Below, in pieces: positions 1 to 36,694 of a stretch of 46,024 bases of DNA. This stretch comes from a virus. Its lineage: Duplodnaviria; Heunggongvirae; Uroviricota; Caudoviricetes. How positions within the stretch are numbered: the stretch's first letter is position 1; each line of letters opens with the position of its first letter. The notes under the pieces are model-generated. The model worked only from the letters and a program-made list of their open reading frames with translations, did no database searches and was not told where the DNA came from. Where the stretch lies: the IMG/VR virus record IMGVR_UViG_2718218133_000007; one strand, written 5' to 3'. The position numbers and the translations under genes were made by a program.

Positions 1-750
1 TCAGTCAATTGTTTTGTTTATTCCATCTGTGACGCCGATTATTTTCTCAAAATAATGAGATGGCGTGACACCATAATAATCTTTAAATGCACATATGAAA
101 TATGAAGTACTGTTATAGCCACATTTCTGGGCTACGACATTGATAGAATAAGAGTTTGAAGTTATGAGTTTTTTTGCATACCTCATCCTAGTATCTCTCA
201 ATATTTCAGTAAATGACGTTCCTTCATCCCTTAATCTTTTTTTTATTAAACTTTCACTCGTATAAATCAATTCCGCAATATCTTTTAAATGCCATTGCCG
301 CTCAATATTAAAACTGATTATTCCAGTAATTTTACAGGTAAATGTATTTATATTTGTTAGTATAAATGAATTTACACTTTCGCGTTTTTTGAACATGGCA
401 AGTAAGGATATACATAGTCTTTCTTTTAACCAAAGGGAGTGTGAGTCTGCTATTTTAATCCCTTCAAACAGAGAAAAAACAAGCGATAATGGAGGTTCCT
501 CTTCAGCAATATAGCCATTCTTATCAAGAGTAAATTTGCCAGGCAGCTCATTATTCACGTCGATAAAAAAGGATAAACATGTTTTCTTATCTATATCAAC
601 AATTCTTAGTTTAGAGGGGCATACTGGTAACTCCCTTCTAATTTTGTCGCTTACAATAAACAATGAATTTTTTTTGAACGAGATAACTCTCCTGTTTATA
701 ATTAAATCAAATGATTGACAGATGAAAACTACGGAGCAAACATAATCCAT
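1..750 (-). CDS. appY: AraC-family transcriptional regulator, AppY-like (complete)
   Basis: 249-aa ORF with C-terminal AraC-type HTH (…[24 protein letters not shown]); matches my recollection of E. coli AppY (249 aa, DLP12 right end); long AT-rich region upstream. Confidence 0.75.
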
Positions 751-1425
751 CTTGCACCTATCATAAAATTAAAACAAGTTGATAGCAGTCAAATAACAAC
801 CAATTAAATACACAATCATAATCAGGATGATGTGCATTTATATTTTTATACACAAAATTATAGTTTGCAAATTTTAATAAATTTCATTTAAGATTAAATT
901 ATTATATGTATATTGTTTTTTATTCTAACGTATTTCAAAGTTACATTTTTCAACGCTTACTATACTTTTTATTAACATAAACTCACTACAACGCACCTGA
1001 AACCTCTTGCTATATATATGTCAACCGTTTGAATTTAAAATAAAAAGAGTATCATTTTTACTTGCATTTCTTATCAAGTCACATTCAACAACAGTAAAAA
1101 AACATTATTAGAACCATTCAATTAACAAAAAACCAACATCCAGCTTGCTTAATTTTTCTTTATTAAACGACATTGAAAATCAATTGATAAAATACATCTA
1201 AACAACCTTTTGGGGCGCAAAAGCATAACATCAAACAAACAAATAACACACCGAAAAAACTCACAATTAATAACCTATGATATACATACTGTTTATTATG
1301 GTTGAATAAGCCACTCGATATCTGGTGCTACGGAAGTGTCCACACGGTTTAGCAGCACCCGATACTTTTTCCAGGCTTCCAGCAACGAGTTTTCTTCCTC
1401 CGTTGCATATACAGCTCACCTTTTT
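751..1425. promoter_or_regulatory. AT-rich, ORF-poor upstream region of the appY-like gene (likely promoter/leader)
   Basis: ~675 bp of very AT-rich sequence with no credible ORF, directly upstream of the appY start at 750. Confidence 0.4.
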
Positions 1426-1719
1426 TCACCCACGATTAACCAACAGCCAGACCAGCAGACACGCCACCACCGGCACAGCAAAATCCATCAGGCTTGCCAC
1501 ATCCCACGCGCGCGGATCAAAACCGCCCCACCACGGCATATTCATTCGCTTGCCATGCCCGAACATTTCGATCCAGCGATATTCTGCCTAGGTGTGTTCA
1601 CGCGCAATGAAGAACGTACAACCGGCTATCGCCCCGTAAGCCCAGTTCCCGGTAAAAAGACCAATCAGTAGCTGCGCAGCCACAGCACAAAGCGCATGAA
1701 GGAAAGGTGTTATATCCAT
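1426..1719 (-). pseudogene. small hydrophobic protein ORF interrupted by an in-frame TAG (about 43 codons, TAG, about 53 codons)
   Basis: Hand translation of the minus strand from ATG ~1719: MDITPFLHALCAVAAQLLIGLFTGNWAYGAIAGCTFFIAREHT-TAG-AEYRWIEMFGHGKRMNMPWWGGFDPRAWDVASLMDFAVPVVACLLVWLLVNRG; neither half reaches the 60-aa ORF-track cutoff. Confidence 0.3.
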
Positions 1720-1732
1720 TTTCATCCTACCC

Positions 1733-1755
1733 AATAAAACGGGGCGCTCGGCCCC
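1733..1755 (-). terminator. putative intrinsic terminator downstream of the distal tail-fibre gene
   Basis: GC stem ggggc/gcccc (~1741-1755) followed on the minus strand by a T-rich tract (gttttatt). Confidence 0.4.
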
Positions 1756-1761
1756 TTAATA

Positions 1762-2802
1762 TTATTTAGACGCAAGCGCCGCCTCAATTGCAGATAATCT
1801 TTGTCTTAATTCTGCGTTTTCTTCTTCCAGTGCTGTTATCCTGTCGTCTGACTCTCTGGCTACCTGAACAAGCAAACCCGTTACGCCTGAGTAATCAACG
1901 GTATAGTATCTTTCTCCCTCTTCTCCATCAGACCCATTGTCCCCGCTCTTGTACTTTATTGTGCTACCAACTGATTCAGGGATTGCATTAAGTGCCTCTT
2001 GCGCAATAACGCCAGCATAAGGCATACCATTAGACTTGAGACGGTAAGTATACCCATTCATTAATCTGATGCGCTCAGTGGCATTATCAATAACCTGAAT
2101 GTTTTCTTTAAGATCTCTGTCCGACACCTGGTCGAATGATGTAGCCTTGCATGACCCGTTTATCTCAAGCTGATAGGTTTTATCTGGGTTCCTTTGTGCA
2201 TAAAACAAAAAAAGCCCGCCATCATCCCTAATTTCATAAACAACTGGACGACTGGAATTTCCCCATAATAACGTCGACACACCAGAATACGCCGTACCTT
2301 GCGTGTTTAGTGTCATGGTCGACCCGTGATTAGCATATTTGATCTGCAATGAGTCTGTATTATCAAACTTAATAAGCGCGTTACTTCCCCGCACACCATA
2401 CGACATGAGACAGTTCCCCATCTTAAGGTAACCATCACTGCCTGGAAAAATTAAAGTTCCTCCGTAAAGATCACTAAAGTCCCAAAAGATACCTTTTGTC
2501 CCGTTATGTGTGACGATCCTCGTCATTGTATCTTTAGTACCATCAATATTTTTTCTGGTATATATGTCACTATAAGCGTTTTCCGTTTCACCAGTCTTAT
2601 TTGACAAATGCAGCTTACCGCTGAATATAGTTCCAGTTGTTGGCAATGTTTTTTGATCATAGATTACATTGCAATAACCATTCCATGTTGTTTTATTGTC
2701 TACATAAGATTTTGTTGCGTAGTTTCCTTGATCGGTTTTTAATTTACTAACATCCGATTTTAGCGTTTTGATGTCATCAGGAATTACTGTTTTTGTAACC
2801 AT
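1762..2802 (-). CDS. tail fibre / receptor-binding protein with C-terminal intramolecular chaperone (peptidase S74-like) domain
   Basis: 346-aa ORF; C-terminal region (…SDRDLKENIQVIDNATERIRLMNGYTYRL…, coiled-coil tail ALEEENAELRQRL) resembles the auto-cleaving chaperone domain of phage fibres/tailspikes; last gene of the tail operon; AT-rich relative to lambda-like core. Confidence 0.55.
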   Translation of the reverse strand: MVTKTVIPDDIKTLKSDVSKLKTDQGNYATKSYVDNKTTWNGYCNVIYDQKTLPTTGTIFSGKLHLSNKTGETENAYSDIYTRKNIDGTKDTMTRIVTHNGTKGIFWDFSDLYGGTLIFPGSDGYLKMGNCLMSYGVRGSNALIKFDNTDSLQIKYANHGSTMTLNTQGTAYSGVSTLLWGNSSRPVVYEIRDDGGLFLFYAQRNPDKTYQLEINGSCKATSFDQVSDRDLKENIQVIDNATERIRLMNGYTYRLKSNGMPYAGVIAQEALNAIPESVGSTIKYKSGDNGSDGEEGERYYTVDYSGVTGLLVQVARESDDRITALEEENAELRQRLSAIEAALASK

Positions 2803-2814
2803 TGTCTTACTCCA

Positions 2815-3084
2815 TTAAGCCCATGTCCTTACATGCTGATCTGTCGTAATGAAAGGCATTAAAGAAGATATGTTTTTACTGCTATCAACAATCCTCATGT
2901 TTACGAAAAAACCACCGCGATCAATGCCCGTACATCTTTCGTTTTCTGGCTCCTCGTAATCAATAATGCAGCCAATAACATCAACAAGAACCCCATTTTC
3001 TTCTTCAAGACTGAACAGGCCACTGTCATATACAATTGCGTTAAACTGTTCTCTGTTATCGAATCGTAATGTTATATCCCGCAT
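2815..3084 (-). CDS. hypothetical small protein between the two fibre genes (89 aa)
   Basis: ORF start overlaps the stf stop (coupling-type arrangement); no family recognised. Confidence 0.35.
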   Translation of the reverse strand: MRDITLRFDNREQFNAIVYDSGLFSLEEENGVLVDVIGCIIDYEEPENERCTGIDRGGFFVNMRIVDSSKNISSLMPFITTDQHVRTWA

Positions 3085-5447
3085 TATACGTATTCCTTAA
3101 GCTGCGTATCTGACAATGCTCTGTTCCAGAAACGGAGGTTTTTTATATGACCATTAAGGTGTCGTAATCCTGTCGTCGTTTGCCCCCCGATTCGAATCAC
3201 GGCTGCTTCACGAATATATTTCCATACTGTTTTGGTTTCAGTGCTTATATGCTTATTTGCAAATGAGCATGTCATGCCGTCAGCCTTAACCCTGAATCCC
3301 ATAACGAGATCTCTTACTCCGCATGACTCATATACACGCCGGTTAGCCCCGCCTATATCGCAATACGAATAACCATCCTGACTGATAGTTCCAGAAGAAC
3401 CAAACCCCATAATAAATGGGCCTCCGGACTGGTGATTTTCTGAATCAATGACACGCGGTGCAGCATTATGAGAAATAAACCAGTTTTTATGGACTTCCAC
3501 CATGAACGTAAAAGGCATGGTATACATATTTTTCATCAGCGGAAATTTACATAAATCTGATGCACGAGTCGCTGGCTCTGTTGTCGTTATGATAAAGGAA
3601 GTTGCACAAGCACCATACTCGAATTGCGGGGTGGTTACTTCTATCCAGTCACCTGTTGCAAAAGCCCCCACTGCTCTGTCGGCTGCAATTTGCAGCTGCG
3701 TACCAACCATTCCCCATTCTGGCAGACATTTCAGTGTTGCCTGAAAATATATCCATCCACTACCAGGGTCGATTTCAAAGTTTGCTGTTAATAGCTGGGC
3801 ATTACCACCCGTAATTTGTAGTTCATGAGTCTGTAATGACAAATAGGCGTCACAAAGGAAAGTGTATCCTTCCGAGTTATACCGTTCAAAACGGATACGT
3901 GCGCGAACATTGAGATCACTTCTTACCCTGAACGACGCGGTAACATACGGACCTTTACTGTACTGATCATCGCCAGTCACATCTATGCCTTTATTACCAG
4001 CAACTGTGCATATATTTCTCCCTGTTGTCGTTCCTGCTATGTCGCTTCCTACTGTGAAACGTCCATATTTAAACTCAAATTCATCTGTTGATGATGTTAC
4101 AGATATACCACCGCTTTTATTCCACGCATCAGGATTAAAACTATTTACGAACATGTTTGTTCGCTGATTCTCTATCAGCAAACCATATTTTTCAAAACGA
4201 GGAACGTTATTCCCTGCCACGGTAATATGCCCGGACTTATCAATATACGTTGCTGATGAAGCGCGGCTAAATTGGCATATGCCATTAACAGGCATTGTTA
4301 TTTCATCACTGCCGATGGTTATTGTTTTATAGCCCGGGGCATACCCTGTTATCGCTTCCAGAGAATCATTCAAGGGTAGCCAGATATCAGGAAGCGGAGG
4401 GACTGAAGCAGGATCAGCGGCATCTTCTGCAATCCGGGCTGCATTCTCTGCTCTTGTTGCGGCTGACGTTGCTTCTATCTCGCTGGCTGCTGCTTTTGTT
4501 TCACTCGTCTTTGCGTTAGTTTCACTGGTTTTTGCAGCTTTTTGGCTATTAGCTGCCGCACTTGCAGAACCAGCTGCGGCACTCTCGCTTTGGGCCGCTG
4601 CATCCTGACTGTTTTTTGCCGCAGTTTCGCTGGCTTTGGCATTCGTTTCGCTGGTCTTCGCTGCCGTCTGGCTGGACTTTGCGTTAGTTTCACTCGTCTT
4701 CGCAGCTTTCTGGCTGTTAGCCGCAGCAGTTGCTGATCCAGCTGCTGAAGTCGCAGAACCGGCTGCTGCGCTCTCGCTTTCAGCTGCTGCAGCCTGGCTA
4801 TTTTTCGCCGCAGTTTCACTGGCTTTGGCATTCGTTTCGCTGGTTTTCGCTGCCGTCTGGCTGGACTTTGCGTTGGTTTCGCTCGTCTTTGCGGCTGTCT
4901 CGCTGTTTTTCGCGTTGGTTTCTGATTTTTTGGCTGCTGTCGCGGAGTTTGCCGATGCAGTCTGCGAGGACGCTGCCGCCTGTGCGCTGTTAGCTGCATT
5001 CGTTTCTGAGGTTTTCGCCGCGTTCTTCGATGATGCCGCTGCAGTTTCGGATTTCTTTGCCACCGCTGCGCTCTGAGAGGCGGCTTCGGCGTTGCGTGCC
5101 GCTTCTTCCACCATTGCCTCAAAACGACGCAATGCCTCCGGCATGACATCATCTTCCGTCATGGCACCGAGAAAATCATTCAGCGTACCTGGTCTGGAAC
5201 CTTCATAGACGGTAATGGTTCCGGCATGTGAAGGCGGAAAACCTTCAACCAGCAGGGTGACGCTGTACTGGCCATACTCAACATCCATGCTGTAACGCCC
5301 GGCTTCATCCGGATTTTCAGAGGCCACCGTGTTCACCAGTACCGTGGTGCTGTTACGCTTTGCCTTCAGTTGAATAGTGCAGTTCTGTATTGGTTTTCCC
5401 GCACCATCTTTCAGCACACCTGAGATTTTTACTGCTGCCATATCCAC
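3084..5447 (-). CDS. stf: side tail fibre protein Stf (lambda Stf-like N-terminus, Ala/Ser/Thr/Lys-rich repeat region, LamG/concanavalin-like C-terminus)
   Basis: 787-aa ORF; N-terminus MAAVKISGVLKDGAGKPIQNCTIQLKA… matches recalled lambda Stf; internal AAKTSETNAKSSQTAAK-type repeats; C-terminal …GHIKNLRFWNRALSDTQLKEYV typical of LamG-like domains; follows lom. Confidence 0.85.
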   Translation of the reverse strand: MDMAAVKISGVLKDGAGKPIQNCTIQLKAKRNSTTVLVNTVASENPDEAGRYSMDVEYGQYSVTLLVEGFPPSHAGTITVYEGSRPGTLNDFLGAMTEDDVMPEALRRFEAMVEEAARNAEAASQSAAVAKKSETAAASSKNAAKTSETNAANSAQAAASSQTASANSATAAKKSETNAKNSETAAKTSETNAKSSQTAAKTSETNAKASETAAKNSQAAAAESESAAAGSATSAAGSATAAANSQKAAKTSETNAKSSQTAAKTSETNAKASETAAKNSQDAAAQSESAAAGSASAAANSQKAAKTSETNAKTSETKAAASEIEATSAATRAENAARIAEDAADPASVPPLPDIWLPLNDSLEAITGYAPGYKTITIGSDEITMPVNGICQFSRASSATYIDKSGHITVAGNNVPRFEKYGLLIENQRTNMFVNSFNPDAWNKSGGISVTSSTDEFEFKYGRFTVGSDIAGTTTGRNICTVAGNKGIDVTGDDQYSKGPYVTASFRVRSDLNVRARIRFERYNSEGYTFLCDAYLSLQTHELQITGGNAQLLTANFEIDPGSGWIYFQATLKCLPEWGMVGTQLQIAADRAVGAFATGDWIEVTTPQFEYGACATSFIITTTEPATRASDLCKFPLMKNMYTMPFTFMVEVHKNWFISHNAAPRVIDSENHQSGGPFIMGFGSSGTISQDGYSYCDIGGANRRVYESCGVRDLVMGFRVKADGMTCSFANKHISTETKTVWKYIREAAVIRIGGQTTTGLRHLNGHIKNLRFWNRALSDTQLKEYV
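4440..5080. repeat. degenerate tandem DNA repeats (period about 189 bp, 63 codons) inside stf
   Basis: Near-identical blocks beginning ~4621 and ~4810 (…cagtttcgctggctttggcattcgtttcgctgg…), with further degenerate copies ~4440-4560; creates spurious alternative-frame ORFs. Confidence 0.6.
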
Positions 5448-5505: not shown

Positions 5506-6105
5506 TCAGAATTTATAACCGACACCCACGATGAAACCGTCAGTGCGCCAGTCGCCACTGCCGGAGCCTTCATAAGCAATATCAATGGCCACGGATTCGG
5601 TCGGGTTAAACTGCACGCCAGCTCCCCACGCCAGAGACGTGTTGCTGTGGCGATCGTCATCACTTCCGGTCAGCACATCGTGCGTTTTCCCCTTGTTGTC
5701 AGTTACGCGGAGATAATCCCCGGAGAACGTCGAAACACGGCTGTAAGCCACACCTGCCATCGCATAAGCACTGAACCATTCATTCACGCGTACAGATGGC
5801 CCCGCCATCATGCTGAACCAGCGGTTACGCACTGAATCTTCATGCCAGCGGGTATCGCTGTAATGCGTTTTTTGCTCATCTTTGGCATTGGCATAACTGA
5901 ATGACGTCACCAGCCCCAGCGTGTCCGTAAATTCATAACGGTATTTCACGTTAATGCCCTTCAGGTCATCACTGCCTGGCATATCAGTATAGGTCTGAAG
6001 ATACCCGGCGCTTAGTGTGGACTGATGCTCTGCTGCGCTCGCTGGCGTACCAGCGGCAACCAGCCAGACTACTGCGGACAGAATAACAGCACATAATTTA
6101 CGCAT
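5506..6105 (-). CDS. lom: Lom-like outer-membrane protein (Ail/Lom family)
   Basis: 199-aa ORF with signal peptide and C-terminal …GFIVGVGYKF beta-barrel ending; position between J and stf as in lambda. Confidence 0.85.
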   Translation of the reverse strand: MRKLCAVILSAVVWLVAAGTPASAAEHQSTLSAGYLQTYTDMPGSDDLKGINVKYRYEFTDTLGLVTSFSYANAKDEQKTHYSDTRWHEDSVRNRWFSMMAGPSVRVNEWFSAYAMAGVAYSRVSTFSGDYLRVTDNKGKTHDVLTGSDDDRHSNTSLAWGAGVQFNPTESVAIDIAYEGSGSGDWRTDGFIVGVGYKF

Positions 6106-25645: not shown

Positions 25646-26056
25646 ATGGCTCAGGTTGCCATTTTTAAACAAATATTCGATAAAGTGCGAAATAATTTAA
25701 ACTATCACTGGTTTTATTCTGAACTAAAACGTCACAATGTCTCACATTACATTTACTATTTAGCTACAGAGAATATTCATCTTGTTCTTGAAAACGATAA
25801 TACGGTTTTAATAAAAGGACAGGGTAAGGTTGTAAATGTAAGATTTTCAAAAAATAAATGCCTTATAGAAGCCACCTTAAAAGGATTCAAATCAGGAGAG
25901 TTATCATTTTACGAATACAGGAAAAATCTTGCTACAGCAGGGGTTTTCAGATGGATTACAAATATCCACGAAAACAAAAGGTATTACTATACCTTTGATA
26001 ATTCATTACTCTTTACTGAGAACATTCAGAACACTACACAAATATTTCCGCACTAA
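25646..26056 (+). CDS. YbcV-like (DUF1398-type) protein (tentative)
   Basis: 136 aa from the second Met ([14 protein letters not shown]…); position and orientation match ybcV of DLP12; ORF track begins at 25631. Confidence 0.45.
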
Positions 26057-26313
26057 ATCATAACGTCCGGTTTCTTCCGTGCCAGAACCGGACTCGCTGG
26101 CATGATGAAATATGTGTACCCGGTAACCCCGGTGTGCATCGTTTTTGATTATTCCCGCACACTCGCGCAGAAGGAGTTCCCCGTCGGGCTACGGTCTCTG
26201 TTAATACGGGAATACGGCGACGATACAGCGCATGATGTGTCAGGCTTGAATACCTTTATCCTTTAAAAGGGATATCAGTTAAGTTATCCCGTGTAGGGTA
26301 TAAACCATTATCA

Positions 26314-26340
26314 AAGCCACTCTGTAGGAAGTGGCTTTTG
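26314..26340. terminator. hairpin with flanking A/T tracts (possible bidirectional terminator) between ybcV-like and the lysis genes
   Basis: aaagccact-ctgtagga-agtggcttt followed by ttg; inverted repeat read directly. Confidence 0.4.
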
Positions 26341-26547
26341 TAATGGCAATAAAAAGCCCCGCGAATGCGAGGCTAAATCCTGGTATTTGTAATGACTGGT
26401 TCTTATCTCAACGCAGCCCCTTACCGCGCGCAAAATGCTCAATATCAAGCATCAGCAATGAGATGTTTAATCTGGATTCACTCCAGAAGTGAGCACCACC
26501 CTGTCTACAGAGCCAGATGTGAAGGATGATGAGTAAAATTATCGCTA

Positions 26548-27015
26548 TCATCGAAGGCATTGCGTCCTGATGTATTCCTGAAGCGTTCTCAGTGCTGTTT
26601 GGTCGCGGATAATTCCGTCCCGGATACCGAGAACGTTTCGTCCAGCAACTGGAGAGAGTTCGACGGTGGCATCATTGCCCATGCCGGAGGCGCTGGAGGT
26701 TTCGGCTGAGGATGGCACAGGGCATTTTCCTTTGACGAGCACCCGACCACCATTATCAAGCTTGCGCCGAAGAGCATCATTTTCAGCTTTCGCATCAGCT
26801 AACTCCTTCGTGTATTTATCATCGAGTGCATCAGCATCACGCTGGCGCTGCTGCATGTCAGTAATGGTGGCGTTCGCCTTCTCCAGTTCACTGGCCTTGT
26901 TATCACGCTGTTCTTTGTAGGCGATTGCATTATCACGGTAATGATTAACAGCCCATGACAGGCAGACGATGATGCAGATAACCAGAGCGGAGATAATCGC
27001 GGTTACCCTGCTCAT
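26548..27015 (-). CDS. Rz: i-spanin Rz
   Basis: [31 protein letters not shown]… N-terminal TM plus coiled coil; start at second Met (track ORF to 27027); follows endolysin. Confidence 0.85.
26589..26795 (-). CDS. Rz1: o-spanin Rz1 (embedded in +1 frame within Rz)
   Basis: [19 protein letters not shown]… lipobox (VVGC) and proline-rich stretch; entirely inside Rz in another frame. Confidence 0.75.
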
Positions 27016-27509
27016 TGTTGCCCCCACAAACAGACCTCACGCTCAATCTCACGACGAGTCATCAGGCCTTTCCATTGCTTACCGCCAGCGTATGCCCAGC
27101 GACGTAGCTGGTCACATGCGCCCTTGATATCGCCCTGGTTTATTTTGCGAAGAAGAGTAGATGTTCTGAAATTGCCTGCGCCCACGTTATAGACGAACGA
27201 GTAAAGAGCGCCGCGCGTTGTTTCCGGTATATCGACTTTGATGTACGGGTTAATTTGTCTGGCTACCGTGGCAAGGTCTTTATTCAGGAGGGCTTTGCAT
27301 TCTGCTTCGGTATACGTTTTACCGGGAATGATGTCTTTTCCTGTATGCCCGTGACATACAGTCCATACGCCAACGATATCTTTGTATGGTATGTAGCTGA
27401 CACCTTCCAGACCATCGTTACCACTTGGGCCAGTGATTAACACTGATGCTATAGCAATTGCTCCGCCACCAATAGCAGCAGCAACGGCTTTTCGTAATGA
27501 TGGAGGCAT
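27012..27509 (-). CDS. R: SAR endolysin (T4-lysozyme-like, phage 21 R / RrrD type)
   Basis: 165-aa ORF; N-terminal Gly/Ala-rich signal-anchor-release segment ([20 protein letters not shown]), E…D…T catalytic motif region ([25 protein letters not shown]). Confidence 0.9.
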
Positions 27510-27724
27510 TATTCACCTCTCGCAGCCTTGCGCTTATCTTCTTTAATCTTGAAATAAAGGTTTGTCAGGTACGTCAGCAGGCCAAATACCAAGCTACCCA
27601 GCACACCTATTGCTGCCCACTGTGAGGGCGTGACTTTATCGAGCAGCTGTAAAAACCAGTAGCCAGCACTGCCTGCGGAGGTGCCGTAGGCAATGCCCGT
27701 TGTTAACTTATCCATGGATTTCAT
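27509..27724 (-). CDS. S: class II holin / pinholin (S21-like) with dual-start motif
   Basis: 71-aa [29 protein letters not shown]… two TMs; Met1-Lys-Ser-Met4 dual start typical of holin/antiholin pair. Confidence 0.9.
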
Positions 27725-27742
27725 AGCCTCACCTCCGCAAAT

Positions 27743-27751
27743 AACGGATGG
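27743..27751. repeat. 9-bp target-site duplication (left copy, aacggatgg) of the IS1 insertion
   Basis: Identical 9-mer found immediately flanking both IS1 ends; IS1 is known to make 8-9-bp duplications. Confidence 0.65.
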
Positions 27752-27806
27752 GGTAATGCTGCCAACTTACTGATTTAGTGTATGATGGTGATTTTAAGGT
27801 GCTTGC

Positions 27807-28082
27807 GTGGCTTCCATTTCCATCAGATGTCCTTCCTGCTCCGCTACTGAAGGCGTGGTGCGTAACGGCAAAAGCACTGCCGGACATCAGCGCTATCTCT
27901 GCTCTCATTGCCGTAAAACATGGCAACTGCAGTTCACTTACACCGCTTCTCAACCCGGTACGCACCAGAAAATCATTGATATGGCCATGAATGGCGTTGG
28001 ATGCCGGGCAACTGCCCGCATTATGGGCGTTGGTCTCAACACGATTTTACGTCACTTAAAAAACTCAGGCCGCAGTCGGTAA
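27807..28082 (+). CDS. insA: IS1 InsA
   Basis: 91-aa [43 protein letters not shown]… matches recalled IS1 InsA (zinc finger + HTH). Confidence 0.9.
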
Positions 28083-28504
28083 CCTCGCGCATACAGCCGG
28101 GCAGTGACGTCATCGTCTGCGCGGAAATGGGCGAACAGTGGGGCTATGTCGGGGCTAAATCGCGCCAGCGCTGGCTGTTTTACGCGTATGACAGGCTCCG
28201 GAAGACGGTTGTTGCGCACGTATTCGGTGAACGCACGATGGCGACGCTGGGGCGTCTTATGAGCCTGCTGTCACCCTTTGACGTGGTGATATGGATGACG
28301 GATGGCTGGCCGCTGTATGAATCCCGCCTGAAGGGAAAGCTGCACGTAATCAGCAAGCGATATACGCAGCGAATTGAGCGGCATAACCTGAATCTGAGGC
28401 AGCACCTGGCACGGCTGGGACGGAAGTCGCTGTCGTTCTCAAAATCGGTGGAGCTGCATGACAAAGTCATCGGGCATTATCTGAACATAAAACACTATCA
28501 ATAA
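28001..28504 (+). CDS. insB: IS1 InsB (expressed as InsAB' transposase by -1 frameshift)
   Basis: 167-aa ORF matching recalled InsB; overlaps insA in -1 frame across the A6C motif (~28058-28064). Confidence 0.9.
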
Positions 28505-28519
28505 GTTGGAGTCATTACC

Positions 28520-28528
28520 AACGGATGG
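28520..28528. repeat. 9-bp target-site duplication (right copy, aacggatgg) of the IS1 insertion
   Basis: See left copy. Confidence 0.65.
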
Positions 28529-28688
28529 TGTACACGGTTCGGAACGAAGAGGAAAGGTATAGAAGTTACATTAGCGTAAGGCTTGAACATCTATTCAAAA
28601 AGAAAAACGCCGCGATTATTCTGGCGTAGCTGAAAGCATCATACAATTATCAAATACGAAAATTACAAAATCATTAAAACGCATCACG

Positions 28689-29429
28689 TTACATCATGTC
28701 TTTTTCTAAAAAAAATCTTGATGAATATTGATGGGGAGGAACACCAAAATACCTTCTGAAAACACTTACAAAATATGACGTGTTTTCATAACTGCATATC
28801 TCAGCAACTTTTCCAACAGAATATAAATTGTAGCTTAATAACCTTTCCGCCATCACCATTCGCTCTTCAAGAATTAACTTACTAAATGATAAGCCTTCGT
28901 GCTTTAATTTTCTTTTTAACAGACTTTCACTCAGATACAGTCTTGAAGATATATCACAAAGTCTCCATGCTGCAGATATATCCGTGTGAATAATAGCCTT
29001 AACTTTACTTCCTAAACTATTAAGACATCCAAATAAAAAACTTTGCACTATTTTCTCTGAAGATAAGATAGCAAGACATGCAAGTGATATTTGATTTCTA
29101 ACAAAATCCACAGTTCTGCCATCACAATTCAAGCATGCAATCAAGTTCTTTAACAATGAAAAATCTTCACATTCCACCATCAAGTATGCCGGATAAAACC
29201 TTCTTACAGAAAAAGGTGAGAGTGTGTTGCTTTTAAAGAAATCATTAACTGTTTTTTCTTCAACATCTACGATCATTACATGATCTATATTTGATGAAAA
29301 AAAATCTTTTAAATTGTAATCAATGAGAACAGCACTTCCTTTTTTAAACAAAATATCTTCTTTACCAATTCGGACATCAAACGAGTTCAACACCAAAATG
29401 ATAGAACATATGTATAGCATATTATCCAC
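28689..29429 (-). CDS. AraC-family transcriptional regulator (AppY/GadX-like paralogue), cargo gene
   Basis: 246-aa ORF; C-terminal AraC HTH (…YENTSYFVSVFRRYFGVPPHQY); N-terminal domain shows AppY-like pattern (ILFKKGSAVLID vs [13 protein letters not shown]); AT-rich own upstream region; hairpin+T-tract downstream. Confidence 0.8.
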   Translation of the reverse strand: MDNMLYICSIILVLNSFDVRIGKEDILFKKGSAVLIDYNLKDFFSSNIDHVMIVDVEEKTVNDFFKSNTLSPFSVRRFYPAYLMVECEDFSLLKNLIACLNCDGRTVDFVRNQISLACLAILSSEKIVQSFLFGCLNSLGSKVKAIIHTDISAAWRLCDISSRLYLSESLLKRKLKHEGLSFSKLILEERMVMAERLLSYNLYSVGKVAEICSYENTSYFVSVFRRYFGVPPHQYSSRFFLEKDMM

Positions 29430-29771
29430 CTGATATCATTGGGGTTACACCAGGTAAGTATAGGTGGAAAATCAATATTCGCCAGTTCAACAATAAGGAA
29501 AATTTCATTGCATCACAAGTATAAAATTATGTATTTAACTCACAAAGACAAATTATTAAACCAATCTGTTATATTATATATAGCTGCGTGGAATCATAAT
29601 ATTATATATTTTGACTGGCATGTTTACTAACTTTAAGTTGCATCTCAATTGTTTCTTCAGCGTAAACAGAGTTTTTATACAAACTGACACTCTGGGTATC
29701 ATAGTGTAGTTTTTACGATTGTAAATATCCTGCATGCAGGAACTCATCCTTTTGGATGATATCGCATACAA

Positions 29772-30731
29772 TTAATTTACCATCAGTCTTAGAGCCAGTT
29801 CGTCCGGATAGGGATCGAAGTAATTCTGTGTAAGCAAGTAATCATTAGGATACTCACCCAGATAATGCTTCAGCAGAGTCAACGGCGCAAGAAGAGGTAA
29901 TGTGCCAGAACGATAGTTAAGTATAACCTCGCTCAACTCTTTACGCTGGCGTGTACTTAAGTAGTTACTAAAATACCCCTGTATATGCATCAGCACATTC
30001 GTGTGATTTTTACGTGATGCAGGTTTTCTGAGAATCGCCATCAGCTTATCACGATACACCTCAAAGTATGATTCAAGGTCCGCCCACTCGTGTATTGCAG
30101 CCACAAATGGTCCCATATCTTTATAGCCTGCCTGACTATGCGCCAACAACTGAAGCTTATAACGACTATGAAAAGCTAATAACTCTCTTCTTGATAATTT
30201 CTCCTTGTAAAGGTGATTGAGCTCATGCAAAGCAAAAACTCTTTCAACAAAATTCTCACGAAGCACTGGATCATGTAATCGCCCATCCTCTTCAACCGGT
30301 AGCCAGGAAAACTTTTCCATCAAAGTGCTCGTAAATAGTCCCACTCCATCTTTACGACCTCGATTACCATTTTCATCATAGACACGCACGCGCTCCATGC
30401 CACAGCTGGGAGATTTAGCACAAACCACAAACCCCGATACATCCTTTAATTTGTCCATATAAGAACGACTAAACTCTGTCATTCTCTCTGTCACATCCTC
30501 ATTCTGGTCGTGGCTGAAACACATCCGTATATTTCCTTGCGTCGAGCGCACAAGACGTAGAGCAGGACGCGGAACTGGCAGCCCTATAGCCATTTCCGGA
30601 CATACTGGTCTGAATGTTACCCATTCCACTAATTTGTCCATTAAAAAGTCAGCTCTTTTGTGACCACCATCAAAACGAACAGCAGAACCGGCCAAACAAC
30701 CGCTGATTCCAATCACAGGTTTTTTTATCAT
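29772..30731 (-). CDS. YbgA-like protein (DUF523 N-terminal domain + DUF1722 C-terminal domain)
   Basis: 319-aa ORF; conserved YbgA-family blocks recalled from E. coli YbgA: IGISGCLAG…VRFDGGHK, FRPVCPEMAIGLPVPRP, KSPSCGMERV, LPVEEDGRL…LRENF, HSRYKLQLLAH, LPLLAPLTLLKHY. Confidence 0.75.
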   Translation of the reverse strand: MIKKPVIGISGCLAGSAVRFDGGHKRADFLMDKLVEWVTFRPVCPEMAIGLPVPRPALRLVRSTQGNIRMCFSHDQNEDVTERMTEFSRSYMDKLKDVSGFVVCAKSPSCGMERVRVYDENGNRGRKDGVGLFTSTLMEKFSWLPVEEDGRLHDPVLRENFVERVFALHELNHLYKEKLSRRELLAFHSRYKLQLLAHSQAGYKDMGPFVAAIHEWADLESYFEVYRDKLMAILRKPASRKNHTNVLMHIQGYFSNYLSTRQRKELSEVILNYRSGTLPLLAPLTLLKHYLGEYPNDYLLTQNYFDPYPDELALRLMVN

Positions 30732-30923
30732 ATTCTCCCCCTTGACTAATTCATTAACACATAAACTGTGTAGTGCACGGAATAAATTGCCTTTCTGGCG
30801 TCATCACTGACAATTTTTCTGTTATGGACTATTCCTAATATAGTATGAAAGTTCTTTAAGTGATCGGTCGTAATCATCTATCTTTCATACTTACTCTCAA
30901 CTATCAAAAGTACAGGATTTATT

Positions 30924-31448
30924 ATGAAGTTATGGCCTGTGTTGACTGGCATTGCACTCTCTTTCACTCTTATAGCATGTAAGGCCCCGACACCACCTAA
31001 AGGTGTGCAGCCGATTACAAATTTTGACGCCAACCGCTACCTCGGAAAATGGTATGAAATAGCTCGCCTCGAGAACCGGTTCGAACGTGGTCTGGAACAG
31101 GTCAGCGCTACTTATGGAAAACGGAACGACGGAGGGATTCGTGTACTTAACCGTGGATACGATCCAACGAAAAATAAATGGAGCGAGAGCGAAGGTAAAG
31201 CATACTTTACTGGAGATACTAAAACTGCAGCATTGAAGGTTTCGTTTTTTGGCCCCTTCTATGGTGGCTATAATGTAATCAAACTGGATGATGAGTATAA
31301 GTATGCTCTTGTCAGTGGTCCGAACAGAGAATACCTATGGATTCTGGCAAGGACCCCAACTATTCCAGATAAAGTAAAAGCAGACTATGTGCGAACCGCT
31401 CAAAAGTTGGGATTCAATGTCAATGAATTATTATGGGTTAAACAATAA
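30924..31448 (+). CDS. Blc-like bacterial lipocalin, outer-membrane lipoprotein
   Basis: 174-aa ORF with lipobox (LIAC), lipocalin motifs GKWYEIARLENRFERGLEQVSATY and KVSFFGPFYGGYNVI…YLWILARTP matching recalled Blc; only plus-strand gene inside the late region. Confidence 0.8.
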   Translation: MKLWPVLTGIALSFTLIACKAPTPPKGVQPITNFDANRYLGKWYEIARLENRFERGLEQVSATYGKRNDGGIRVLNRGYDPTKNKWSESEGKAYFTGDTKTAALKVSFFGPFYGGYNVIKLDDEYKYALVSGPNREYLWILARTPTIPDKVKADYVRTAQKLGFNVNELLWVKQ

Positions 31449-31480
31449 AATCCCTACCCGAAATAATACTTATTAGAAAA

Positions 31481-31505
31481 AAACCAGCCTTTGGGGAGGC
31501 TGGCT
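31481..31505. terminator. strong hairpin with A-tract/T-tract (bidirectional terminator; candidate tR' for the late promoter and terminator for blc-like)
   Basis: aaaaaaa-ccagcct-ttgggg-aggctgg; on the minus strand the stem is followed by ttttttt, ~100 nt downstream of Q. Confidence 0.55.
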
Positions 31506-31603
31506 AAATCAGGAAACAAGCTGTTATATGATAATAACTACGTTGCGATTCCAACATTTAAAATGTTAGACTAATGACAATCAGACAGCAACTTTTCCTT
31601 TAA

Positions 31604-31996
31604 TTATTTCGAACAATCAGCATCCATCTCCAATCGGAGATCCAACACCATCAGCATACCCTCCACTACGCCCTCAGCTTTCTGAAGCATCCTGCCAACC
31701 CAACAATCAGATCGCCCATGCTTACGTGCAAGCGCCATAAAAGTCATGCCGCCGACATAATAGTCCACCAATAAATCATGCAAATCGCTGTTGTTCTTTT
31801 TCAGACGGGCCATGCACCCGCAAATGATCATCGCGTCATCGTCACAACATTGTGGGCGAGATTTTACTTTTGAAGTAATTAATCCCTTAAAACCGGCGGC
31901 AATGGACGACCAGGTCACATCTTCATGATTATTAGCCGCCCACGCTCCCCAACGCTCAAGAACCATCTGAATATCACGCATCAACTTACTCCACAA
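31604..31996 (-). CDS. Q: late-gene antiterminator Q (QuuD / phage 82-type)
   Basis: …[34 protein letters not shown]…[16 protein letters not shown]… resembles recalled QuuD; position downstream of rusA and upstream of late region; true start may be an internal Met. Confidence 0.8.
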
Positions 31997-32203
31997 AAAT
32001 CAGACCAGAACGCCAATTACAAGCAAAAATCAACGAAACAGTATTAGTTGATTGTTATCTCTGACTTCATACTCCTGCTCCTGTCAGGGTTTTGGCGTAA
32101 TTCTTCAGTATTCGGTAATCGGTCAAAACAGAACCGGGGAAACGATATAAGCGCAGACGCCCCCAGCGGTGGCGAAGACGTTCTGCCATATAAAACTCAA
32201 ACA

Positions 32204-32566
32204 TCATTCATTCCCCATTTCGGTGATGGTCAGTTCCAGCCTCCCACCTTTGGTAACAGGCATCTTCACAACGCGGTAATCAACGACCTGAGCATCATCC
32301 AGCCAGAAACCTGCTTTAGTGAGTGCGTCAAAAGCGGCTTTTTGCAGATTATCCAGGTCACGGCGACGGCGATCCGGCATGTGGCACTCAATGCGGATTT
32401 TCACAGGCATAGCCAGGCCGATATCCAGCATTGCGTTTTTAATGATTCGGGCGACGTTATCGCGGTATGCCTGCCCCTCTGCGCTGACGTGCGTGCGCCC
32501 GCGATTATGGCGGTAATAGCGATTATTGCTCGGAGGCCAGGGTAATGTGATGCTGTAGGTATTCAC
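32204..32566 (-). CDS. rusA: Holliday-junction resolvase RusA
   Basis: 120-aa [39 protein letters not shown]… matching recalled RusA. Confidence 0.9.
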
Positions 32567-32853
32567 GCCTTAATAACCCCCTCTTTCAGCCAGATAACCT
32601 GTGTTCTCGCCATACCTTCCAGCGCGCATTCTTTTGCATATGCAGCATCGACAAAATGTGTGCGGCGGTCGATTTCGTCGTGGCAGGCAGAACATGCAAT
32701 GGTGGCAATCAGGTCTGGCGGTTTGGTACCGGTGCCGCACAATCCAGTCAGCCGGATATGTGCCAGTACAGACGTTTCAGGGTTGCCATTACATACGCCA
32801 GGGATTCTTACCTGGCATTCCCGACTACGCGCTGCTTTTCTCAAATCAGCCAT
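32563..32853 (-). CDS. ybcO: YbcO-like protein (DUF1364)
   Basis: 96 aa from internal Met ([27 protein letters not shown]…), Cys-rich; ORF track extends to 32892. Confidence 0.75.
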
Positions 32854-33016
32854 GATTCCTCCTTGCTGCCAGTCGCAACCATTTTTTATCAACCAGGCTG
32901 GCGGTATATCCGAGCAGTGTTGGTATTTCGGAAGGCTTCAGCTCCGGTTTACGCTTACGACGATCTGGTACTCTGTAGATGTGTCCGTTCATGACACGAA
33001 TAAGCGGTGTAGCCAT
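32846..33016 (-). CDS. ninE: NinE-like small protein (56 aa)
   Basis: Hand-translated ORF below the 60-aa track cutoff: [56 protein letters not shown]; start overlaps ybcN stop, stop overlaps ybcO start. Confidence 0.6.
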   Translation of the reverse strand: MATPLIRVMNGHIYRVPDRRKRKPELKPSEIPTLLGYTASLVDKKWLRLAARRNHG

Positions 33017-33471
33017 TACGCCTCCTGCTTGTCGCGGAGCAGCTGGAACTCGCAGCTCTGCGGAATAGTCAGGTGGCAGCCAATATTCACCGCCCAGGCT
33101 TCAACCTTACACAGGAAGACATACATCTCTCCGGTATCAAGATCGGAGGTATGGCGTAACGACTGGATAGTGGTGATATCACCGGTTACGACATCAACCA
33201 GGTCTTTGGTTTCATAACCGAGATATGTGTGTTTGAGAGCATCTTTTACCCAAGCTGGAGTAGCGAACGTTTTACCCCTGCTGATGAGGTATTCACTGAT
33301 TTCGCTGTACCACATGTGGCTGAGTGCATTCTGGGAAAGACTGCGTTTCTCACGCCACGGTTTAAGCACCATGCGAAAGCATTTGCCCTCCTCCAGATAA
33401 GGCTGGATCTGCCGACCGATAGCGGTGAAGTTACCGCGATGTAATTTGATGCCATCTTGTGGGAGATTCAC
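33016..33471 (-). CDS. ybcN: YbcN-like protein (DUF1367)
   Basis: 151-aa ORF at the ybcN position of DLP12-type nin regions. Confidence 0.7.
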
Positions 33472-33658
33472 GCTTCACCTCCGCAGAGGTCAAACGCTGG
33501 ATACAATATATCGCAGGTGCATTTCTGCATCTGTGGAGGGAGAAGAGAGTTTGGATTGTGTGTGCGCATAAACGTCCCCGTTTAGCGCAGAAGTCACCGG
33601 AGTTGTTCAGGCTCCGATGACATGATTATGGCGAGTTGATTATCGCAAATCAAAGGTT

Positions 33659-34015
33659 TTAATTGTGCTTTATTCCTTCAAGCGTTGCCTTCATACCAAC
33701 CAAAGAAATGTTTAGCTCTCCAACTTTCTCAGGGCTATATAATTCAGAATGAAGCCAATATTCTGATTTATCTAAACATCTTTTAGCCAGCTCTCGATCA
33801 AAGTCTACGACTTGGGAAGACGCTTCATACCAAAGTCTATAAAGTTTTTCTTCTTCGTTTGGGTTATTAGGCTCACCACGTTTTAATTTTTCAGTATATA
33901 AAATTGTTGAATAAATCGCAGGAGTTAATCCAGTGATTGCCCTCTGCCGCAGATCGGATTTGTTTGTTATCCACCCCAACAGACGATCTCCCATCCATGT
34001 GATAATTGTATCCAT
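33659..34015 (-). CDS. hypothetical protein (118 aa), no family recognised
   Basis: ORF with plausible RBS (aagaaggg…ATG); AT-rich relative to flanking nin genes; occupies the position where K-12 DLP12 has ybcM/ybcL. Confidence 0.45.
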   Translation of the reverse strand: MDTIITWMGDRLLGWITNKSDLRQRAITGLTPAIYSTILYTEKLKRGEPNNPNEEEKLYRLWYEASSQVVDFDRELAKRCLDKSEYWLHSELYSPEKVGELNISLVGMKATLEGIKHN

Positions 34016-34476: not shown

Positions 34477-34800
34477 CTACTGTAATCGATCCGAACGTAA
34501 ATGCGGCAAAACTCGACTCCACTTATCATCCTGCCACGGCCGGAATTTTACATGTGCCGTTTCTCTGGCAAGGATTGCCTGTGCCTTATTGAGTATCTGG
34601 GGATATTCTTGCTCGATAGAAGTGAAGCGACCAGCTTCACGATGCTCCGCAACCTGAAGAAGAGGAGTAACGTTCTGGTAGGTAATTAACATCACATTCC
34701 CTGCTCGCCATAACCAGGCGAGTGTGCAAAGTTCGTTATCAGTGAATTGTTTTGTGATTGGGTATTGTTGAACTGCTAGAACGAGAACGCCAGCATCCAT
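34477..34800 (-). CDS. hypothetical protein (107 aa), no family recognised
   Basis: ORF downstream of ybcK on the same strand; no recognisable motifs. Confidence 0.4.
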   Translation of the reverse strand: MDAGVLVLAVQQYPITKQFTDNELCTLAWLWRAGNVMLITYQNVTPLLQVAEHREAGRFTSIEQEYPQILNKAQAILARETAHVKFRPWQDDKWSRVLPHLRSDRLQ

Positions 34801-34911
34801 TGGCAGTCTCTATAGTAAAACCATAGCTCAGGACGCTTCGTTCAGGATAGATAATTTTATTGTACTTACCTAACTTTCTTACTATAGCACGGTTGAAAAA
34901 GTGATTATTAC

Positions 34912-36438
34912 TCAAAAATAAACCTCACCATCAACCATATATTTGAGAGTACTTATCGCCTGCTGGGCGGATATTGTTTTCATTAAAGGATAGTGTTTAA
35001 AAACAATGCCATTCATAAAATAGATATCACAGGTTTTATTATCTGTATTGATTATGATTTTTTCGAATGTTTTATAGGCAAGTGTACGACATAGCTCTCG
35101 CCCATTTTTACTGGTTAAGTCAATAGCATGAAAATCACCAAGTGAACTCACCGCTTTACTCTTCAAAGTTTTTAATGATACAGAAGCCCTTCGTAATTCC
35201 TTATCTAATACTCTGATTTTTTCTGCTATAGCGGTAACTTCAGGCGCAACAGATAATGCAGCAATTAAATTATTAATTTTCATCTGGAGCTCAATAATTT
35301 TCAACTCTAAAGTTTCATTAGCATCTTTCTTGTTTTCAACTGGTTGGATTTTACTACAATTAAAAAGCAACTCATTAATGATATTATAATCAACCAAATC
35401 TCTCTTTATTGATGGCCTGTCACATCGATGCAGTCTTCTCATCGGACAAACATAATAGCCATGCAAACTTCCAGATACCGCATGAACAATCATGGTATTA
35501 CCACAAGCCTCGCACTTCATAACTGTTCGAAGTAGATTTATCAACATAGGATTTTTGCTACTATTGCTAATACCAAAAGGTGCCAACCGAATTTCCTGTA
35601 CAGCGTAAAACAAATCATCTGATATGACTCTGGGATAATAGCCAGCGATTTCACTTATTCCTTTACCTCTTGCACGATATGAAGGTACGCATATACCTAT
35701 CAGAGCTTTATTCGCTAATAATTTTTCAATTACAGAAGGTCCCCATGCACTTTCTTTTCCTGAGAAATTCTTTACAGCATGATCATTTAAATACTTGGCT
35801 ATTGCATTCAATGAGCGCCTTTCCATCCTGAGTTTAAAAATTAGCTCAATAGTTTTCACCCTGTCGGGGTCTGGAACAAAAGCCGTTCTTTTGTCATCTA
35901 AGGAGAGCCATCTCGGACAAGACGCCGTCATAATCGTACCTGATTCCAGTGCATCCTGCCGTTTTTTCTTCCATGATAATTTAACCCGACTTGACTTTAT
36001 CTCGCTTTCTTCATTTGCCCTTTGTGCTATAAGTATGGCTTTTATTAATGAATATGGCTCATTCAAAGAGTCAATATTATAGACTGTATTGTCGCAAAGA
36101 GTTATAACATCAATACCGTGATTCAAAATCAATTTCAGACGTTCAATCGCTTCACCGACTTTTTCTCTTGAAAGTCTGTCCAGACTTTCAACTAACAATG
36201 TAGTTCCTGGCAATATATAACCATGCTCTATAGCATCTAAAAATTCCGAAAAAGCTCCTGATTGTGCATGCTTTCCTTTGAATGCACTTAATCCTAAATC
36301 TTCATATGTTATGGTATCAAGATAATAATCACTATTTACCTTTAACCATTCAGCAATAAGTCTTCTCTGTCGGTTTAATGAGTCGCCAGACATCTGACCT
36401 GGTGATGAAAATCGCATATATGCTATGGCTTTTTTCAT
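34912..36438 (-). CDS. ybcK: large serine recombinase (resolvase/invertase-type N-terminal domain, recombinase domain, zinc ribbon, coiled coil), YbcK-like
   Basis: 508-aa ORF; N-terminal …AIAYMRFSSPGQ… with candidate catalytic Ser; Cys cluster CEACG…C…C; AT-rich; adjacent to emrE as in DLP12. Confidence 0.75.
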   Translation of the reverse strand: MKKAIAYMRFSSPGQMSGDSLNRQRRLIAEWLKVNSDYYLDTITYEDLGLSAFKGKHAQSGAFSEFLDAIEHGYILPGTTLLVESLDRLSREKVGEAIERLKLILNHGIDVITLCDNTVYNIDSLNEPYSLIKAILIAQRANEESEIKSSRVKLSWKKKRQDALESGTIMTASCPRWLSLDDKRTAFVPDPDRVKTIELIFKLRMERRSLNAIAKYLNDHAVKNFSGKESAWGPSVIEKLLANKALIGICVPSYRARGKGISEIAGYYPRVISDDLFYAVQEIRLAPFGISNSSKNPMLINLLRTVMKCEACGNTMIVHAVSGSLHGYYVCPMRRLHRCDRPSIKRDLVDYNIINELLFNCSKIQPVENKKDANETLELKIIELQMKINNLIAALSVAPEVTAIAEKIRVLDKELRRASVSLKTLKSKAVSSLGDFHAIDLTSKNGRELCRTLAYKTFEKIIINTDNKTCDIYFMNGIVFKHYPLMKTISAQQAISTLKYMVDGEVYF

Positions 36439-36694
36439 GGTGACACCTGCTAACGTATGCTTTTATAAACCTTAGTGGTGGGATATAATTTTTGTTTAAT
36501 TTTTATTTAAAAAGACAATTAAGGTCACATTATCTTGAATATACAACAATAATCGTATTGCAATTTTCTTACGCCATAATCTTGAAAGCACAAAAGAATA
36601 CATAAAAAAATAAAGACATTAACAAAAAGCATAAAACGAGGCTCATATAAATATAAGAGCCTCCATATTTTAGTCGTTTAGAAACAAATTATTT

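Follow-up and report, generated by a model that had tools for sequence, protein, structure and literature searches.

The DNA analysed here is a virus of the class Caudoviricetes (IMG/VR record IMGVR_UViG_2718218133_000007). This stretch of 46,024 nucleotides is called the window below. It holds a lambdoid prophage of the DLP12 type that looks complete and has its late genes on the minus strand. We studied an island at positions 28520-31603, where three intact genes are bounded by the antiterminator gene Q and the holin gene. They encode a Blc-type lipocalin lipoprotein, a RudS-type tRNA 4-thiouridine desulfidase and an AraC/XylS-family regulator (Table 1). An earlier sequence-only reading had placed three genes here, and the open reading frames agreed with it, as did Pfam matches far above the gathering scores. 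As it also said, none of the three is a phage structural or lysis gene. Comparison with chromosomal and phage relatives led us to conclude that the island is of composite origin. Its lipocalin and RudS genes were apparently captured from a host stress cluster minus its regulator, and the AraC-type gene appears to be a separate module of prophage lineage.

Table 1. Features of the island and its borders, with positions in the window
Feature	Position	Strand	Evidence or remark
Antiterminator Q, phage-21/DLP12 type, 125 aa	31604..31981	-	PF06530, 171 bits; upstream boundary of the slot
Q-proximal non-coding region, 155 bp	31449..31603	-	Hairpin 31482-31505 followed by U7; strong intrinsic terminator
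Blc-type lipocalin lipoprotein, 174 aa	30924..31448	+	Lipocalin_2; antisense to the late operon
Divergent lipocalin/RudS intergenic region, 192 bp	30732..30923	.	Presumed promoters of both genes
RudS-type tRNA 4-thiouridine desulfidase (TudS/DUF523 + DUF1722), 319 aa	29772..30731	-	Pfam; co-oriented with the late operon
AT-rich RudS-AraC spacer, 351 bp, 31.6% G+C	29421..29771	-	Holds a sigma-70-like promoter
AraC/XylS-family regulator, AppY/YdeO/GadX/PatE group, 243 aa, 31.4% G+C	28689..29420	-	HTH_18, HTH_AraC; alternative GTG start at 29429
Weak terminator-like hairpin, 5-bp stem then UUUUUCUUUUU	28596..28627	-	Downstream of the AraC-type gene
Insertion sequence IS1, 768 bp	27752..28519	+	InsA and InsB Pfam matches; between the AraC-type gene and the holin gene
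Class II (P21-type) holin	27509..27724	-	PF04971, 121 bits; downstream boundary of the slot

Three genes between Q and the holin

The lipocalin matched Lipocalin_2 with 150 bits (gathering score 24) and passed the cut-off of the NCBIfam Blc subfamily NF007786 (316 against 267 bits). It matched the PDB Blc chains with an E-value of 3.5e-69 and shared 64% identity with Blc of E. coli (PDB 3mbt). Its lipobox, read from the translation by eye, is L-I-A-C, with Cys19 followed by Lys and no Asp at +2 (MKLWPVLTGIALSFTLIAC-KA), which indicates that the product is a lipoprotein with predicted sorting to the outer membrane. The claim of a divergently oriented Blc-like lipocalin lipoprotein is thus borne out. 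Orthology to the chromosomal blc gene of E. coli was rejected, because the protein is about 80% identical to the RudS-adjacent lipocalins of Enterobacter and related genera, compared with 64% to Blc.

The middle gene had been called a YbgA-like DUF523/DUF1722 protein and a putative nucleobase-handling enzyme. Both domains were found. PF04463 (2-thiouracil desulfurase/DUF523) covers residues 7-149 and PF08349 (DUF1722) covers residues 192-309, each with 138 bits against gathering scores of 34.7 and 22.5, respectively. The comparison with YbgA did not hold. NCBIfam model PRK10167 (YbgA, 169 positions) matched residues 160-315 only, with 191 bits against a cut-off of 237. In addition, K-12 YbgA (169 aa) is a stand-alone DUF1722 protein, inactive on tRNA (PMC11417400). 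YbgA identity was therefore rejected for a protein with an extra TudS domain. By its domain architecture, the island protein is a full TudS-DUF1722 fusion, RudS.

The RudS family was named in 2024. Its members carry a [4Fe-4S] cluster and remove 4-thiouridine (s4U) from tRNA, giving uridine (PMC11417400, Jamontas et al., NAR 2024). The island RudS is 93% identical to RudS_vir, which is gp66 of phage 1H12, in a gap-free alignment of two proteins of 319 aa. Residues Cys12, Cys44, Cys110, Glu46, Ser107 and Ser109 are all present, and the three cysteines match positions 12, 44 and 110 of RudS_vir (PMC11417400, Table 1). Overexpression of RudS_vir in E. coli free of RudS lowered tRNA s4U, and of the RudS variants assayed it was RudS_vir that had the shortest lag on 4-thiouracil (PMC11417400). 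Ultraviolet (UV) light acts on s4U, leading to growth delay and accumulation of guanosine tetraphosphate (ppGpp); overexpression of RudS family members lessened the growth delay under UVA (PMC11417400). By analogy with the 93% identical RudS_vir, the island RudS most likely strips s4U from tRNA. A tRNA 4-thiouridine desulfidase of this type takes the place of the proposed nucleobase-handling enzyme.

The third gene encodes a regulator with a C-terminal double helix-turn-helix (HTH). It matched HTH_18 with 50 bits (gathering score 33.6) and HTH_AraC with 41 bits. The AraC family of the sequence-only reading is therefore right, whereas its AppY-like label is loose. Identity to AppY was 31% over the full length, compared with 53% in a full-length alignment to ECs_0287 of the Sakai prophage Sp1. 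The true AppY of this prophage is encoded at positions 1-750 on the minus strand and is 100% identical to K-12 AppY. Equivalence of the island regulator to AppY, YdeO or GadX was rejected, given this low identity to AppY and scores of 123 bits against 348 for YdeO and 82 against 500 for GadX. Two AraC/XylS regulators of one subgroup are thus present in the prophage, one per cargo site. As the sole AraC-type gene in its Sp1 region, ECs_0287 is probably the Sakai version of PatE (z0321).

The island regulator retains a lysine at the position of AppY K170. A structure model of moderate confidence (predicted local distance difference test score, pLDDT, 72) matched Rns, CsvR and ToxT best over the full length, and its DNA-binding domain was 39% identical to that of GadX with a root-mean-square deviation of 1.2 A. 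The family is narrow, and every match with a named source came from E. coli. PatE, PsrB and AppY activate gadE and hdeA and thereby acid resistance (PMC10877973, PMC10057817).

Homology searches with the three proteins thus upheld the family calls. In PHROGs the three proteins belong to phrog_1450, phrog_3275 and phrog_2809, which are all families of unknown function.

Origin, distribution and selection

The nearest chromosomal homologues of the island RudS are 66-77% identical and occur in Citrobacter, Kluyvera, Enterobacter, Leclercia, Klebsiella oxytoca, Pectobacterium and related genera. We compared 62 enterobacterial RudS loci. A lipocalin gene lies divergently upstream of RudS in 42 of them, with an identity of 69-82% (typically about 80%) between its product and the phage lipocalin. 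An MlrB-like gene is present in 43. The arrangement lipocalin, MlrA-like MerR regulator, transthyretin-like gene and RudS was found in 36 loci. In two, from Citrobacter sedlakii and Citrobacter sp. JGM124, the lipocalin gene adjoins RudS as it does in the phage. None of the 62 loci has an AraC gene.

In other genera, RudS is the last gene of an operon with amine oxidase, DUF1365, cyclopropane-fatty-acid (CFA)-synthase-like, DUF2878 and DUF3833 genes. One locus, from Raoultella terrigena, joins both contexts: its lipocalin gene is divergent from MlrB, which is followed by DUF1365, a CFA-synthase-like gene and RudS. This locus suggests a larger ancestral RudS cluster.

In other phages, the relatives of the island regulator are found in another moron slot, which lies between the tail fibres and att. 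The G+C content is 31.4% for the AraC-type gene, 43.4% for RudS and 43.8% for the lipocalin gene, compared with 50-52% for the neighbouring phage genes and 49.8% for the whole window. Because the AraC-type gene is absent from the chromosomal loci, differs in G+C content from the other two genes (31% versus 43-44%) and has its relatives in another slot, the proposed composite origin follows. The sequence-only reading had taken the three genes for a single module. Their character as cargo is supported, but by origin they would be a captured pair and a separate AraC module rather than one unit.

In Salmonella pathogenicity island 2 (SPI-2), orf319 is RudS_ST, a RudS orthologue that is repressed by MlrB and MlrA through an operator overlapping its promoter. 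We considered whether the island regulator and RudS could correspond to orf242-orf319 and rejected this for the regulator, since orf242 is MlrB, of the MerR family. Enterobacter-type RudS promoters share a dyad, ACTTGGACAA-N10-TTGTGTAAGT, that overlaps -35/-10-like hexamers. It was seen in six loci at about position 5930-5965 (L015, L016, L018, L024, L030 and L035) and also in L051 and L060, and it is probably an MlrB-like operator. The dyad was not found upstream of the phage RudS. At 30783-30817, the lipocalin-RudS intergenic region has a match, with one mismatch, to the outer arms (AAAATTG...CAATTTT) of the MlrA palindrome of E. coli. Its spacing is N21 instead of N20, its inner arms are unmatched, and the expectation is 0.39 matches of this kind per window, which makes it a weak lead.

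The island alone (window 28560-31480) was searched against 5426 complete E. coli genomes. A match was found in 1151 of them, and at least 80% of the query was covered in 999 (about 18%). Among the 1151 matched genomes, the best-match identity was at least 99% in 601, 95-99% in 118, 90-95% in 325 and 80-90% in 107. The hosts of the island are DLP12-type prophages at argU and Qin-type prophages, for example in the commensal E. coli HS. E. coli has been stated to be without RudS (PMC11417400); this is true for K-12 and untrue for roughly 1 in 5 complete genomes.

The island is also present in isolated phages, with 99.2% nucleotide identity in IdasGreatGrand and 87.3% in 1H12 and ten related records. 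There, too, the order is Q, lipocalin, RudS, AraC, holin, and the island always lies between Q and the holin. The same order was intact in 61 of 80 IMG/VR contigs. IS1 is absent from these 61 loci and from IdasGreatGrand. In two of the 80 loci the contig stops within the gene, with no disruption seen; the remaining 78 have full-length lipocalin and RudS genes. Both genes are still intact in variants that lack the AraC gene.

We rejected the view of the regulator as a variable add-on within E. coli, because copies without it are secondary losses by insertion of IS1 or ISApl1-mcr-1 or by deletion. In one pig isolate from Viet Nam (NZ_AP023286.1, positions 620-3573 of the extracted locus L072), an ISApl1-mcr-1.1-PAP2 unit replaces most of the AraC gene, and colistin resistance has therefore entered the Q-holin slot of a prophage. 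A different remnant occurs in E. coli C43(DE3) and B-RalR (hits H81 and H82, at about 1.59-1.61 Mb). It consists of the lipocalin gene and a truncated TudS-domain gene and covers 31% of the query at 97.3% identity in this E. coli B derivative background. Two short contigs of a 'Candidatus Nanosynbacter' metagenome-assembled genome (L057 and L062) carry Q, lipocalin, RudS, AraC and holin at 94-100% amino-acid identity; they are almost certainly bin contamination.

The regulator gene contains a T8 tract at 29297-29304 (A8 on the plus strand). The tract is T8 in 47 related contigs, T7 in 7, T6 in 2 and T9 in 1, and any length other than T8 shifts the reading frame at about codon 40. In the 1H12 allele the homopolymer is missing at this site. 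The variation reflects either phase variation or sequencing error.

To quantify selection, we calculated the ratio of nonsynonymous to synonymous substitution rates (dN/dS) between the window allele and the 1H12 allele, which are 13% apart in DNA and have three genes of identical length. The lipocalin had a dN/dS of 0.06, RudS one of 0.11 and the AraC-type regulator one of 0.26. The values for holin, lysozyme and Q were 0.07, 0.06 and 0.12, respectively. The three cargo genes are kept by purifying selection, and the regulator is less constrained.

The Q-holin slot and its expression signals

The prophage layout was taken from a 100% identical stretch of strain FUJ80154. At its end, the prophage has intD adjoining the tRNA-Arg gene argU and fimZ, and emrE and ybcK are present as in K-12 DLP12. 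The start of Q follows the PGAP annotation of the corresponding FUJ80154 locus (L001). The C-terminal half accounts for the differences between Q and QuuD of K-12, which are 88% identical. Homology to K-12 ends at position 31622, in the last codons of Q, and comes back at 27739, just upstream of the holin gene (essD in K-12). The sequence downstream of quuD differs between the window and K-12. In K-12 DLP12, the interval from quuD to essD is nmpC, as the sequence-only reading had stated, and in K-12 Qin the equivalent slot holds cspB/cspF. The genes for Shiga toxin in Stx phages occupy the same slot. The lysozyme and Rz genes come after the holin gene. An Rfam scan of window positions 26000-34000 gave no match.

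Insertion sequences are also drawn to this slot, and IS1, IS2 and IS3 were found in it in many other genomes. In the window, IS1 is flanked by a 9-bp target duplication, AACGGATGG, at 27743-27751 and 28520-28528, and the left coordinate of the studied region, 28520, is the first base past IS1. It is a secondary insertion outside the island proper. Inside the late operon and in opposite orientation, IS1 could be polar on the lysis genes.

Two further differences from K-12 DLP12 lie outside the slot. At about 34500-36650 of the window (from positions 26078-28247 of the FUJ80154 locus), a gene with a P22AR C-terminal domain stands between ybcK and ybcN, and ybcL and ybcM are lacking. The replication, recombination, head and tail modules are full in this prophage and have been lost from K-12 DLP12.

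The hairpin next to Q folds with -14.9 kcal/mol (z = -3.4) and was called by the terminator scan. The Q-proximal region is 91% identical to the 1H12 allele, and the hairpin is invariant. We inferred that the hairpin is tR' and that the region is the pR'/tR' leader of the late operon. The scan gave no other strong terminator between tR' and the holin gene. For this reason, Q-modified polymerase should read RudS and the AraC-type gene in sense; it should read the lipocalin gene in antisense. The terminator that the sequence-only reading had seen after the AraC-type gene was not supported as a strong one. The 5-bp hairpin and T-run there fold with only -7 to -8 kcal/mol (z = +0.75 against shuffled sequences) and were not called by the scan.

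The lipocalin-RudS intergenic region has 33.9% G+C and is 90% identical between the window and 1H12 alleles. Its lipocalin-proximal part of about 140 bp is almost invariant, and the conservation exceeds the expectation from a dS of 0.20-0.29 at neutral sites. It was not alignable with its Citrobacter chromosomal counterparts. A promoter-like site, TTGAGA-N16-GATGAT, lies at 30900-30873 on the minus strand.

The region upstream of the AraC-type gene had been described as AT-rich, and its G+C content, set against that of the window, agrees. Here TTTACA-N16-TATGAT at 29725-29698 on the minus strand was the region's best sigma-70-like match (10/12). Both hexamers are kept in 1H12, in a spacer that is just 72% identical overall with 41 gap columns. 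The regulator gene is thus predicted to have its own conserved promoter-like element.

Readings of the island and known systems

Our preferred reading, to which we give a probability of about 0.6, treats the island as lysogenic-conversion (moron) cargo of composite make-up, placed in the variable slot that lambdoid phages have between Q/tR' and the holin. Its first module would be a divergent pair from an enterobacterial chromosome, the outer-membrane lipocalin and RudS, whose MlrB-like MerR regulator would have been lost from the phage copy. The second would be the AT-rich AraC/XylS regulator of the prophage PatE/PsrB/AppY group with its own promoter. The lipocalin and the regulator would be expressed in the lysogen from their own promoters, and transcription from pR' would additionally reach RudS and the regulator once Q antiterminates. 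Overall, the lysogen would gain fitness through envelope changes, UVA and stress tolerance, and regulatory rewiring. The position between Q/tR' and the holin, the other cargo found there in related phages and the deviating base composition are those of cargo in this slot. The foreign base composition, the purifying selection, the viable phages that carry the island, the published blc moron and the activity of RudS_vir all fit this reading.

Several observations weigh against it. RudS_vir was the weakest tRNA desulfidase of the enzymes tested, at good protein levels (PMC11417400), and for this reason tRNA s4U may not be its sole or best substrate. The regulator is only 53% identical to its nearest probable characterised relative. 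The predicted promoters are consensus matches, and such matches were no more frequent than in shuffled sequence (13 versus 11.6 expected). The regulator gene is frameshifted, mostly in the T8 tract, or otherwise disrupted in about one fifth of the IMG/VR loci, and it has been lost through insertion sequence events in some genomes, which points to weaker or conditional selection on it. Finally, IS1 may have altered downstream expression in this window.

The genes could also serve the lytic cycle, so that the main beneficiary is the phage and not the lysogen. Erasure of s4U at position 8 of tRNA (s4U8) would sustain late translation after induction by UV or sunlight, since s4U8-C13 cross-links, uncharged tRNA and ppGpp accumulation would be averted. 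RudS and the AraC-type gene are co-oriented with the late operon, with no strong terminator between tR' and the holin gene, and the island is retained in plaque-forming phages. UV both induces lambdoid prophages and acts on s4U, and the shorter UVA growth delay upon RudS overexpression points the same way (PMC11417400). However, this reading leaves unexplained the lipocalin, whose gene is the best conserved and runs antisense to the late transcript. The chromosomal ancestors are ordinary host stress genes, late expression would come just shortly before lysis, and the activity of RudS_vir is weak. On balance we regard this possibility, the main rival to our preferred reading, as unlikely. A more specific version, in which RudS is made upon UV or sunlight induction for the phage's own benefit and the AraC regulator, possibly with host MlrA, controls the captured pair, is more doubtful still.

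If such a phage-benefit eraser did exist, roughly 1 in 5 E. coli would carry a phage-driven, strain-variable switch of tRNA modification. A prophage-borne RudS is present in about 18% of complete E. coli genomes, and for this reason differences between strains in tRNA 4-thiouridine, UVA growth delay and stringent response may depend on prophage content.

The AraC protein may instead have replaced the MlrB-like regulator and control the divergent lipocalin and RudS promoters, not the host acid-resistance genes. In E. coli phages the regulator-less pair is always accompanied by the AraC gene, the chromosomal versions mostly have a dedicated regulator (the 43 of 62 loci above), and the AT-rich intergenic region is strongly conserved between alleles. 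Against such a self-contained regulon, two Citrobacter chromosomes (L011 and L056) carry the pair without an adjacent regulator, and the lipocalin and RudS genes are intact in variants that have lost AraC. Moreover, the AraC gene evolves faster and differs in base composition, and its closest relatives act on host regulons. We consider this arrangement quite improbable.

That the island is neutral or decaying DNA hitch-hiking with the Q-lysis module is very improbable: the slot does tolerate varied inserts and insertion sequences, the AraC gene is often broken and E. coli B strains keep only a remnant, but a dN/dS of 0.06-0.26 at 13% DNA divergence with three intact frames of equal length, the 78 of 80 loci with full-length lipocalin and RudS, and the conserved intergenic elements are contrary to it.

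Many prophage lipoproteins act in receptor masking or exclusion. The island lipoprotein could mask a phage receptor in the manner of Cor or Llp, or RudS-altered tRNA could block incoming phages, and membrane proteins do dominate the lambda morons (PMC6969025); this is scarcely probable, given that none of the three proteins matched a PADLOC defence model at E <= 0.01, that the lipocalin is close to chromosomal housekeeping-type lipocalins and that it has no similarity to Cor or Llp.

We return to the preferred reading, a composite moron cargo. The slot and the moron concept are textbook knowledge, the blc moron was already listed (PMC6969025) and RudS_vir has been assayed (PMC11417400). The composite origin of the island is new here; our literature search found no paper on the three genes together or on this origin. 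The island shows how such cargo is assembled: the phage apparently took the outer two genes from a host stress cluster, left their regulator behind and put a phage-lineage AraC regulator beside them. Otherwise it is another example of the variable slot downstream of Q, with a gene set that is common in E. coli. Lipocalins probably also occur in light-inducible regulons such as that of LitR.

Compared with the known cargo of this slot, nmpC in K-12 DLP12 and cspB/cspF in K-12 Qin, the island likewise lies downstream of Q and a terminator and upstream of the holin, has a foreign base composition and has genes in either orientation. It differs in that its cargo is a captured chromosomal pair plus a regulator.

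The chromosomal Enterobacter-type cluster likewise has a lipocalin gene divergent from RudS, with identities of about 80% (lipocalin) and 70-77% (RudS). In contrast, the phage island is without the MlrB-like regulator and the transthyretin-like gene, has the AraC gene added downstream, and has unrelated intergenic DNA from which the Enterobacter operator dyad is absent.

The lipocalin shares the Lipocalin_2 fold, the Blc subfamily score and the lipobox Cys19 with Blc and with the 'blc' moron, which was listed in more than 50% of infant-gut lambda phages (Mathieu et al. 2020, PMC6969025). The lipocalin of 1H12, a phage of that collection, is 97% identical to that of the window. Unlike Blc itself, the window lipocalin is nearer to the paralogue that is divergent from RudS in Enterobacter, Leclercia, Citrobacter sedlakii and others.

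RudS has the TudS and DUF1722 architecture, the length and the Cys, Glu and Ser residues of RudS_vir, and both genes lie between lipocalin and AraC genes downstream of Q. The window allele diverges by 7% in amino acids and about 8% in nucleotides, and it resides in a DLP12-type prophage at argU, whereas RudS_vir belongs to a Jouyvirus.

The regulator resembles PatE, PsrA and PsrB of enterohaemorrhagic E. coli and AppY of DLP12 in its length of about 245 aa, its two domains, its AT-rich gene and its location on a prophage. It differs from them in its position in the Q-holin slot, whereas appY, the Sp1 gene and the homologues in ev099 and mEp332 lie at the tail-fibre/att end. It also forms a separate, narrow clade confined to E. 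coli and is co-resident with a true AppY.

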